Assembly: GCA_026914155.1 (NCBI GenBank)
Contig: JAPPGH010000020.1
Span: 1,068 to 65,067 of the forward strand
DNA from: Candidatus Palauibacter rhopaloidicola
GTDB lineage: Bacteria > Gemmatimonadota > Gemmatimonadetes > Palauibacterales > Palauibacteraceae
Length of the DNA stretch: 64,000 bases
Direction: 5' to 3'
Shown: piece after piece, positions 56,448 through 56,990 of the stretch
How positions within the stretch are numbered: position 1 is the first letter of the stretch
How the letters are laid out: each line of letters starts with the position of its first letter
Notes under the pieces: generated by a model
Seen by the model: the letters and a program-made list of their open reading frames with translations, nothing else
The model's database searches: none
What the model was told of the DNA's origin: nothing
Program-made: the position numbers and the translations under genes

Positions 56448-56522
56448 GGGCCCGTAGCTCAGCCTGGTTAGAGCGCACGCCTGATAAGCGTGAGGTCGGT
56501 AGTTCAAATCTACCCGGGCCCA
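56448..56522 (+). tRNA. tRNA-Ile (anticodon GAT)
   Basis: Acceptor GGGCCCG/CGGGCCC. D arm AGCTCAGCCTGGTTAGAGC. Anticodon arm CACGC-CTGATAA-GCGTG. T arm GGTAG-TTCAAAT-CTACC. Discriminator A. CCA is not encoded. Confidence 0.9.
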
Positions 56523-56990
56523 CTAAACCTCCTACCCGATCCAACCTTCTCCCCGGTCCCGATCTTGGACCGACCTCACGGACGGCCAAGTCGACGGTAG
56601 TTCAACCGAGCGCCCCTAAGGGGCGCGAGCTCGGTGAAGCATCGGCCCCGCCAGGGGACGGTGCTTCACCAAATCTACCCGGGCCCACTCAATCTCCTCC
56701 CCGATCCAACCCTTGCCCCGGTCTCAATCCTTGGACCGACCTCACGGACGGCTAAGTCGCCTCGGTAGTTCAACCGAGCGCCCCGCCAAGGGGCGCGAGC
56801 TCGGTGAGGAAGCGGCCCCGCCAAGGGACGGTGCCTCACCAAATCTACCCGGGCCCATACTTCCTACCACGGGATCCAACCCTTCGCCCCAGCCCCTATC
56901 TCGACCGACCTCACGGACGATCCGGTCGCCCAGGTGGTCCAACCGGGCCCCCGCACGCCCCGGGCGAACGGGGTGGCGAGAGGGTATCGT
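56505..56990 (+). repeat. tandem array of tRNA-Ile 3'-end/T-arm-derived units (165 and 170 bp periods plus a decayed third unit), each with a double-hairpin insert
   Basis: CAAATCTACCCGGGCCCACT occurs at 56505-56524, at 56670-56689 (exact) and at 56840-56857 (first 18 nt). CGGTAGTTCAA occurs at 56497-56507, 56595-56605 and 56763-56773. The hairpin inserts are at 56606-56669 and 56774-56839. Confidence 0.9.

Follow-up and report, generated by a model that had tools for sequence, protein, structure and literature searches.

What a series of tRNA fragments is doing directly behind an intact tRNA gene, and where the DNA between the fragments has come from, is the question raised by a locus in a 64-kb stretch of the genome of Candidatus Palauibacter rhopaloidicola (the whole analysed stretch, here called the window). 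An earlier note, made from the letters alone, offered three explanations: stacked att scars of serial integration at tRNA-Ile, a tRNA-derived structured RNA or terminator array co-transcribed with the tRNA, and a small element inserting into T-loop sequences. Of these we favour a form of the second, namely an array of tRNA-linked repeats that would have arisen by unequal recombination and would be co-transcribed with the tRNA, processed and terminated, and have a role as RNA; taken as a whole, we give this reading about an even chance of being correct.

The array and its setting

The window has a G+C content of about 70%. Its tRNA-Ile(GAT) gene (56448-56523, + strand) is intact, was called by ARAGORN and scores 72.2 bits with the Rfam tRNA model; CCA is not encoded. 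The gene order is DnaE, DUF4837 and PhoD, then tRNA-Ile with the array, then an OMP-like ORF, a CitMHS transporter and a TonB-dependent receptor, the flanking PhoD being 97% identical to the protein of a Gemmatimonadetes MAG. A putative promoter of the tRNA can be read on the + strand at 56358-56386 as TTGAAC (56358-63), which overlaps the stop codon of PhoD, followed by 17 nt of spacer and TAGGAT (56381-86); it matches 8/12 positions of the consensus and was not called by a consensus scan. The leader of ~60 nt that would follow it contains an inverted repeat (56396-408/56426-38) that may form a hairpin. Syntenic loci of relatives were gathered through PhoD homologues and further loci by the scans described below (L numbers throughout); in three of all these loci (L032, L043, L060) this promoter block, together with ~33 nt of the PhoD 3' end, accompanies duplicated tRNA modules. 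The scan detected neither a canonical intrinsic terminator nor a promoter, and no similar repeat was found behind the window's other tRNA gene, tRNA-Glu.

The array begins 1 nt past tRNA-Ile, on the same strand, and consists of two full units and one decayed unit with a unit length of 165-170 bp; Tandem Repeats Finder reports a period of 170 with 2.5 copies and 85% matches (score 563, 56505-56919). The last 20 nt of the tRNA, CAAATCTACCCGGGCCCACT (56505-56524), recur exactly at 56670-89 and their first 18 nt at 56840-57, so that three matches were found where 0.01 would be expected by chance. Each full unit is composed, in this order, of a C-rich spacer, a conserved box, a copy of the 5' half of the T arm, hairpin 1, hairpin 2 and a copy of the tRNA 3' end, all on the + strand. 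The two halves of the T arm are thus held apart by an insert of 64 nt (56606-69) in unit 1 and 66 nt (56774-839) in unit 2, made up in each case of two G+C-rich hairpins. These coordinates had been given in the earlier note for the 3'-end copies, T-arm halves and inserts, and all were verified.

In unit 1 the spacer (56525-56565) is C-rich and G-poor (45% C, 13% G). The box GGACCGACCTCACGGACG (56567-56584), which contains ACCGACCTCACG, has a column identity of 0.90 across 22 units, including those of the distant relatives L056 and L057. The T-arm half CGGTAGTTCAA (56595-56605), a direct repeat, ends at T-loop position A58 and is followed by hairpin 1, CCGAGCGCCCC-TAA-GGGGCGCGAGCTCGG (56606-56634), which is predicted to fold and aligns to the tRNA core. 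Hairpin 2 (56633-56670) is an inverted repeat (arms 56633-49/56654-70) with 12 bp, a 1x1 mismatch, a further 4 bp and the loop GCCA, assigned from the repeat, from folding and from compensatory pairs; the 3'-end copy (56670-56689) closes the unit. Unit 2 has a spacer that is also C-rich (56690-56732), the same box (56733-56750), the T-arm half CGGTAGTTCAA (56763-56773), hairpin 1 as placed by unit alignment (56774-56804), hairpin 2 with its inverted repeat and compensatory pairs (56803-56840; arms 56803-18/56825-40) and the 18-nt 3'-end copy (56840-56857). One whole unit is predicted to fold with -76.6 kcal/mol (z = -4.9). The 12-mer ACCGACCTCACG, present in every unit, is the exact reverse complement of tRNA positions 56489-56500, an antisense box absent from the description in the earlier note.

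A third, decayed unit extends from 56858 to about 56990, as had been noticed before. Comparison of the repeats shows that it keeps a spacer, an intact box (56902-56919) and a degenerate T-arm half (AGGTGGTCCAA, 56932-42) and that both hairpins are gone; the covariance model R1, built from 28 copies, does not detect it. Its orthologues are the sole remnant of L001 and, in L005, a unit 2 that is still intact.

Origin of the insert and constraint on its hairpins

Hairpin 1 (CCGAGCGCCCC-TAA-GGGGCGCGAGCTCGGT) aligns at 22/30 positions with AGAGCGCACGCCTGATAAGCGTGAGGTCGGT, the stretch of tRNA-Ile that holds the D-stem 3' strand, anticodon arm and variable loop. The similarity to the tRNA core has a z of ~4 and is significant (p<0.05) in 26/26 copies; judged by these alignments, hairpin 1 was copied from this stretch of the tRNA itself and has since degenerated. 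In hairpin 2 it is the 3' strand (GGGGACGGTGCTTCACCAA) that shows a likeness, to the variable loop plus the T-arm 5' half, with a median z of 2.2 that rises to 4.3 in the GAGGACGG variants. Together, the two alignments indicate that the insert is made of remodelled partial duplicates of the same tRNA and is not foreign DNA. Similarity of the spacer to the tRNA leader or promoter was not significant, and a third anticodon-arm-like module in the region of the 12-mer box was rejected for the same reason (median z 1.6).

In our interpretation each 165-170 bp unit would derive from the tRNA-Ile gene next to it, as a partial copy that has been remodelled; the 3' strand of hairpin 2 may repeat the variable loop and T-arm 5' half a second time, in diverged form and paired to a complementary strand. 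The origin of the array, and the gain and loss of units within it, could then lie in unequal crossing-over or slippage between the short tRNA-derived repeats.

To judge from the aligned copies, the hairpins keep their pairing through compensatory change and the spacer diverges far faster. Pairwise identity among 22 full units is ~55% in the spacers vs 86% from the T-arm half through the 3'-end copy, and those spacers of L056 and L057, where box, T-arm halves and hairpins are retained, can hardly be aligned at all. In the named structure 92.6% of the cells are paired, compared with 34-46% in slid-partner controls. Double changes occur at 6 pairs: in hairpin 2, two apical pairs have gone from C-G to U-A and one pair of the outer stem from A-U to G-C, and the interrupted copy of L052 (see below) supplies the remaining three. 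The distant L056 has additional compensated stems in both hairpins (GCGAAC/GTTCGC, GGCGCC/GGCGAC), and conservation extends to the two internal mismatches of hairpin 2 (G.G or U.C; G.A). When the conserved box was tested as a hairpin, no covariation was found.

The double change in the outer stem of hairpin 2 that the earlier note had seen between the two units (GGTGAAG/CTTCACC vs GGTGAGG/CCTCACC) is real, and selection on structure had been suggested from it. That suggestion is strengthened by the double changes and by a covariation score of 0.097 vs 0.072 in shuffles, with 0/500 shuffles reaching 0.097, and it is weakened by the kinship by descent of many of the counted copies, as related sequences can exceed such controls without structural constraint. 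DNA palindromes, moreover, are subject to template-switch 'quasipalindrome correction', which can yield compensatory changes without selection. The units might on these grounds be neutral debris of pseudo-tRNA slippage, their likeness being due to gene conversion with the tRNA and to quasipalindrome correction, an explanation that we consider possible but doubtful. Copy-number variation, decayed units and the truncated or interrupted tRNA copies described below all agree with it, and most tRNA-linked repeats of E. coli have no known function (PMC8144298). It would, however, hardly predict that the layout persists across lineages whose spacers have drifted to ~55% identity, and even in L056 and L057; nor would it predict the conserved mismatches, which palindrome correction should have removed.

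Orientation, base-pair bias and spacer composition are only suggestive as signs of transcription together with the tRNA. The orientation of the array always equals that of the tRNA, G-U exceeds A-C on the + strand (19 vs 8, only a weak lean to that strand), and the spacers contain 45% C and 12-13% G.

Relatives, islands and interrupted tRNA genes

The junction of hairpins 1 and 2 was used for a scan of one genome per species. About 30 matches are chance occurrences inside ORFs of G+C-rich genomes; the others fall in 14 loci of Gemmatimonadota, mostly of Candidatus Palauibacter, where 20/20 matches have tRNA-Ile as a neighbour and immediately follow the TTCAA of a T-arm 5' half. Altogether, 15 species-representative Gemmatimonadota genomes, 5 metagenome contigs and 1 synteny locus have this architecture, in each case at tRNA-Ile and at no other site. 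The metagenome scan, anchored on the conserved box plus T-arm half, yielded type-B loci and the distant relatives L056/L058 and L057, in which the tRNA does not adjoin PhoD and the spacer is unrelated, with box, T-arm halves, hairpins and 3'-end copy all kept. Within the 64-kb window, model R1 matched only the two full units, and the element is therefore locus-specific, not dispersed. That the repeat might have no other copy anywhere, as the earlier note had considered, is refuted by the presence of the same architecture at tRNA-Ile in ~20 Gemmatimonadota genomes or contigs.

Copy number differs between close relatives. In L001 (97% PhoD identity) there are no full units and the tRNA is followed by one decayed unit only, while L005 (87%) has two units whose hairpins have changed yet still pair; the window has 2 full units, and L035, L055 and L059 have 2 to 3.

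Comparison of the tRNA-Ile locus across relatives revealed not only this variation in unit number. The array also stands at the edge of a recombination hot spot: all loci share the upstream synteny, and the DNA downstream varies by genome and carries mostly defence-type genes (C5 methylases with Vsr and HNH; UvrD/PD-(D/E)XK with an AAA_21 ATPase; GASH with a double GTPase; KAP NTPase, GmrSD, 5-hmdU kinase, macro domain and reverse transcriptase). In L004 (94% PhoD identity) and L006 (83%) an ICE with integrase, TrbL, TraG, VirB11-like ATPase and ArdC directly follows the tRNA, the T arm of which is GGTGGTTCAAGTCCACC (GGTGG..CCACC); the element has therefore supplied the 3' half of the tRNA. 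An ICE-type arm, ATAAAACTTACGGGATTT, is also found in L055 after the 3'-end copy of a unit. Two loci (L021, L056) contain small islands at whose right junction a tRNA 3' half sets in precisely at its anticodon loop (CCTGATAAGCG...), with more units behind it; the other island boundaries lie at ragged positions within units. L056 also contains one perfect palindrome, CGACCTCACGC-G-GCGTGAGGTCG. The locus marks a conserved hot spot of defence islands and ICEs in sponge-associated and environmental Gemmatimonadota.

Such a setting invites the first of the three options, that tRNA-Ile integrases left the units behind as a stack of attL/attR remnants, or still use them as pseudo-attB sites, and that the hairpins are parts of element arms. 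The T arm replaced by the ICE in L004 and L006, the variable, defence-gene-rich DNA behind the array, the junctions of L021 and L056 with units behind them and the ICE-type arm in L055 are all in keeping with it, as is the 12-mer box, which is the tRNA's inverted complement, the form expected of a core-type site. We nevertheless regard it as unlikely. No integrase was found in the window or in 14/16 related loci (tblastn with the ICE integrases; Pfam on the ORFs of 12 loci), the exceptions being L004 and L006, and none is present in the small islands; the earlier observation that the genes near the array include no integrase held when the neighbours were examined. The units show homology from end to end and have orthologues in other species, element debris is absent from among them and the content between the repeats is tRNA-derived, while the ragged island boundaries within units point to no single crossover point. 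What stands of the option is the island and ICE hot spot at the tRNA in relatives; conserved, orthologous and structurally constrained units without element remnants do not fit scars.

A more specific proposal, that the box is the inverted core site of an anticodon-loop integrase, was rejected: the pattern ACCGACCTCACG-N(4-24)-CGTGAGGTCGGT is absent from the scanned viral contigs, and the fresh anticodon-loop junctions in L021 and L056 have no 12-mer box in front of them. The E. coli counterpart of the array is not known to be an integration site. Tandem att repeats and CIME-like remnants of ICE or island accretion at tRNA genes, and tycheposon-type partial-tRNA repeats, share with the array direct repeats of a tRNA 3' part beside a variable island region, together with ICEs at the same tRNA in relatives, but the units described here are short, conserved, structured and made of tRNA, with neither integrase nor debris between the repeats.

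The third option, a small non-autonomous element (MITE or PATE-like) inserting into T-loop sequences, is highly unlikely and has been largely refuted. It would account for the same insertion point after TTCAA in every copy, the short flanking CAA repeat and the two terminal hairpins. However, all 20/20 pattern matches in the 14 Gemmatimonadota loci are in the T-arm context of tRNA-Ile and dispersed copies number 0, model R1 has no other match in the 64-kb window, an empty pseudo T arm was never seen, and the insert aligns to the tRNA's own anticodon arm. A MITE or other non-autonomous transposon requires several copies scattered over unrelated sites, with terminal repeats or target duplication; in the 15 genomes and the window, every copy is at the tRNA-Ile locus and consists of tRNA sequence. 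Inspection of the sequence also led us to reject an integron attC array (GTTCAAC and ATCCAAC are not complementary partners, as core sites of the form RYYYAAC ... GTTRRRY would be, and an integrase is absent) and ends of the IS200/IS605 or IS91 type (no complementary R boxes, no dispersal).

In some relatives the double hairpin is found inside a tRNA gene. At seven genome loci (L022, L029, L032, L033, L036, L043, L052) and on two metagenome contigs (L059, L060) it lies in the T loop of an upstream copy of tRNA-Ile, in most loci the PhoD-proximal one, and the tRNA 3' end follows the hairpins. Except in the decayed L029, all of these copies possess the complete 5' part of the tRNA (acceptor, D arm, anticodon arm, variable loop, GGTGGTTCAA), and neither ARAGORN nor Rfam calls them. 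About 110-200 bp beyond the interrupted copy there is a second copy of the promoter region with ~33 nt of the PhoD 3' end, then an intact tRNA-Ile and ordinary units; this intact gene with its own promoter is always 200-430 bp downstream of the interrupted one. In L060 three promoter-tRNA modules stand in tandem, one truncated, one interrupted and one intact, and decay of the interrupted copy is visible in L029, L036 and L060.

The simplest account of the interrupted genes is a tandem duplication of the whole module, after which deletion between two T-arm 5' halves would have occurred in the dispensable copies, through the same unequal recombination of short tRNA-derived repeats that is proposed for the units. 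They are flagged here as interrupted tRNA-Ile pseudogenes that tRNA finders miss. That the insert might instead be an intron-like or expansion segment of a functional tRNA-Ile, with the units as displaced 3' halves, is scarcely credible: the 5' part is perfect and the promoter kept in L032, L043, L052, L022 and L060, and insertion after A58 could spare the 5-nt T-loop motif, but the intact gene with its own promoter is always nearby downstream, interrupted copies decay (L029, L036, L060), neither tRNA finder calls them, intron families are unmatched and the deletion offers a simple explanation. For the window, a group I or bulge-helix-bulge intron was rejected in the same way, its tRNA being uninterrupted and the interrupted copies of relatives having an intact gene beside them.

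Comparison with the tRNA-linked repeats of E. coli

The earlier note did not recognise the architecture as a described element. It does match a described class, the 'tRNA-linked repeats' (TLRs) of E. coli, and adds to it a new sequence family in a new phylum. TLRs comprise 22 sequences at ten loci, mostly of no known function, and were first described in 1978 for tyrT (PMC8144298); the literature on them (Egan & Landy 1978, Rudd 1999, the rttR small RNA, tpr) is summarised in the same paper. They are defined by their position, immediately behind the tRNA gene of a tRNA or rRNA operon, and by 18-19 bp of identity to the 3' end of that tRNA (PMC8144298). The array lies directly downstream of tRNA-Ile on the same strand, the 3' ends of its repeats are 20/20 and 18/18 identical to the tRNA 3' end, and it has the tyrT-type layout, as we ourselves read it from the E. 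coli locus, of ~170-180 bp units with T-arm 5' half, ~65 nt insert and tRNA 3' end. Membership of the Rfam family RtT (RF00391) failed by sequence: the RtT model finds nothing in the window, whether at the gathering score or at E<=10, and in the array region Rfam finds the tRNA only, with no RtT, ribozyme or intron at the same limits. By its defining features we thus file the array as a TLR in kind and not as a member of RtT.

The tRNA-derived structured RNA or trailer is the best-fitting of the three original options in view of the tRNA-derived insert, the compensatory changes and the E. coli architecture; its co-transcription is the part that we put forward by inference. E. coli TLRs are transcribed and processed to discrete RNAs (RttR, RrA/B/F), of which only RrA/B/F have an established function, and the 3'-end copy has been proposed as their processing determinant (PMC8144298). 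The present array is a new, well-conserved TLR-type family in a distant phylum, probably co-transcribed with its tRNA and processed. Its units would be read through from the tRNA-Ile promoter, the tRNA 3'-end copy that closes each unit could act as a 3'-processing determinant, and the hairpins may stabilise the released RNA or trailer. Inside the tyrT repeats, Rho-dependent termination was reportedly observed by Kupper et al. in 1978 and by Rossi et al. in 1981. The C-rich, G-poor spacer might likewise offer access to Rho, as in E. coli tRNA operons, several of which terminate in Rho-dependent terminators (PMC2190699).

A second, phylogenetically remote family with the same split-T-loop layout is of interest because most TLRs have been without known origin or function since 1978. 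Some 30 diverged copies now reveal which parts are constrained, namely the tRNA 3' end, the T-arm half, the two hairpins and a box of 16-18 nt, so that an old question is opened to comparative analysis. They also suggest a general rule, that TLR units may be nested, remodelled partial copies of the neighbouring tRNA. It is a more speculative and rather improbable step to regard TLR-type arrays as a widespread, selected class of tRNA-derived structures, ancient or repeatedly reinvented, that would range from E. coli to Gemmatimonadota and act where a highly expressed tRNA gene meets an island hot spot. If it were true, a processed regulatory or insulating RNA would be conceivable, as would reserve copies of the tRNA 3' end that shield the working tRNA gene by absorbing the activity of integrases and recombination.

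For a closer comparison, the tyrT-tyrV locus of K-12 was read base by base. Its 178-bp repeat occurs in 3.1 copies, is annotated as rttR/tpr and matches Rfam RtT; a unit contains the 5' half of the T arm as far as A58 (AAGGTTCGA), an insert of 67 nt that is rich in G+C, and the 19-nt tRNA 3' end (AATCCTTCCCCCACCACCA), and the insert aligns with the part of tRNA-Tyr that begins at the D arm and extends through the T-arm 5' half (z 4.2, p 0.001). The two arrays differ in that one belongs to tRNA-Ile in Gemmatimonadota and the other to tRNA-Tyr, with sequence homology undetectable; in the spacer, C-rich here and A/T-rich in E. coli; and, on the side of the present array, in the lack of an encoded CCA, in the island and ICE hot spot and in the relatives' tRNA genes fused to the insert. 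Model R1 has no match in the E. coli locus, just as RtT has none in the window, and similarity between Gemmatimonadota and E. coli inserts gives p values of 0.03 to 0.8, by which homology is not established; the parallel may therefore be convergence.

The parallel itself is extensive. Both arrays run head to tail downstream of a tRNA and in its orientation (170 vs 178 bp, 2.5 vs 3.1 copies), and their units end in the last 18-20 nt of the tRNA here and the last 19 nt in E. coli. In both, a T-arm 5' half to A58 stands ~65 nt upstream of this end, separated from it by an insert of tRNA-body sequence (64-66 nt here, 67 in E. coli) that starts with YCGAGCG (YTCGAGCG in E. coli). The segment before the T-arm half is in each case antisense to part of the tRNA 3' half, covering the variable loop and the 5' side of the T stem here, and the 3' side of the T stem and the acceptor in RtT. 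Rfam RtT, too, models the structured portion of the TLR unit, in which the tRNA 3'-end copy forms the closing pairing.

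Interrupted tRNA-Ile genes and conserved features of the repeats

Some Gemmatimonadota relatives possess tRNA-Ile genes in which the complete 5' part is followed by a double hairpin of 62-66 nt, positioned in the T loop after A58, and then by the 3' end. Such interrupted genes are found at L032:270-430, L043:1613-1807 (minus strand) and L060:2478-2620, and also in L052, L022, L036, L033 and L059; ARAGORN made no call for them. Downstream of every interrupted gene there is an intact tRNA-Ile carrying its own copy of the putative promoter.

Hairpin 2 of the tRNA-linked repeats keeps an internal mismatch whose two linked states are G.G and U.C (columns 60/79 of alignment A2, corresponding to window positions 56642/56661), the sole U.G copy being unit 1 of the window. 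A second mismatch, G.A, is kept three pairs further inward. Conservation of these mismatches suggests a recognition feature. The 16-18 nt conserved box of the units forms a perfect palindrome, CGACCTCACGC-G-GCGTGAGGTCG, at L056:11760-11790 (identical in L058), where it abuts its own tRNA-sense complement.

Insertions and differences between relatives at the tRNA-Ile locus

In two relatives an ICE is inserted immediately 3' of tRNA-Ile (L004:4323-10236 and L006:7662-13575), which encodes a tyrosine integrase, TrbL, a TraG-like protein, a VirB11-like ATPase and ArdC/MPTase, and which has swapped the T arm of the tRNA for a compensated allele, GGTGG TTCAAGT CCACC. A second, P4-like integrase is encoded in L004, 4.7 kb further along.

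Two small islands, of 3.9 kb (L021) and 1.7 kb (L056), are both without an integrase. Their end junctions (L021:6655-6700 and L056:13375-13425) begin precisely at the anticodon loop (CCTGATAAGCGTGAGG...) and continue through the entire tRNA 3' half into additional units. The junction looks like an attR produced by crossover in the anticodon loop.

The closest relative, L001, has a DNA identity of about 94-95% to the window. A 1.5-kb segment immediately 3' of the array differs (window 56595-58140), with an OMP-like ORF in the window versus a 362-aa minus-strand ORF in L001. Further on, an entire 2.35-kb TonB-dependent receptor gene (window 60621-62971) corresponds to a mere fragment in L001.

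In L029, L032, L035, L036, L049, L052, L055 and L033, the variable region 3' of the array is a hot spot of defence genes. These comprise C5 methylases with Vsr and HNH, UvrD-PDDEXK with AAA_21, GASH with a double GTPase, a KAP NTPase, a HATPase_c_3 protein, GmrSD, a 5-hmdU kinase, a macro domain and a reverse transcriptase.

The tyrT/tyrV repeats of E. coli

The 178-bp repeats of tyrT/tyrV in E. coli K-12 (NC_000913.3, 1286709-1287500; our locus L062) likewise have a split T loop, a layout for which we found no statement in the accessible literature. The two parts, AAGGTTCGA and AATCCTTCC..., are separated by 67 nt, and this insert aligns to tRNA-Tyr itself, from the D arm to the 5' half of the T arm (z 4.2).
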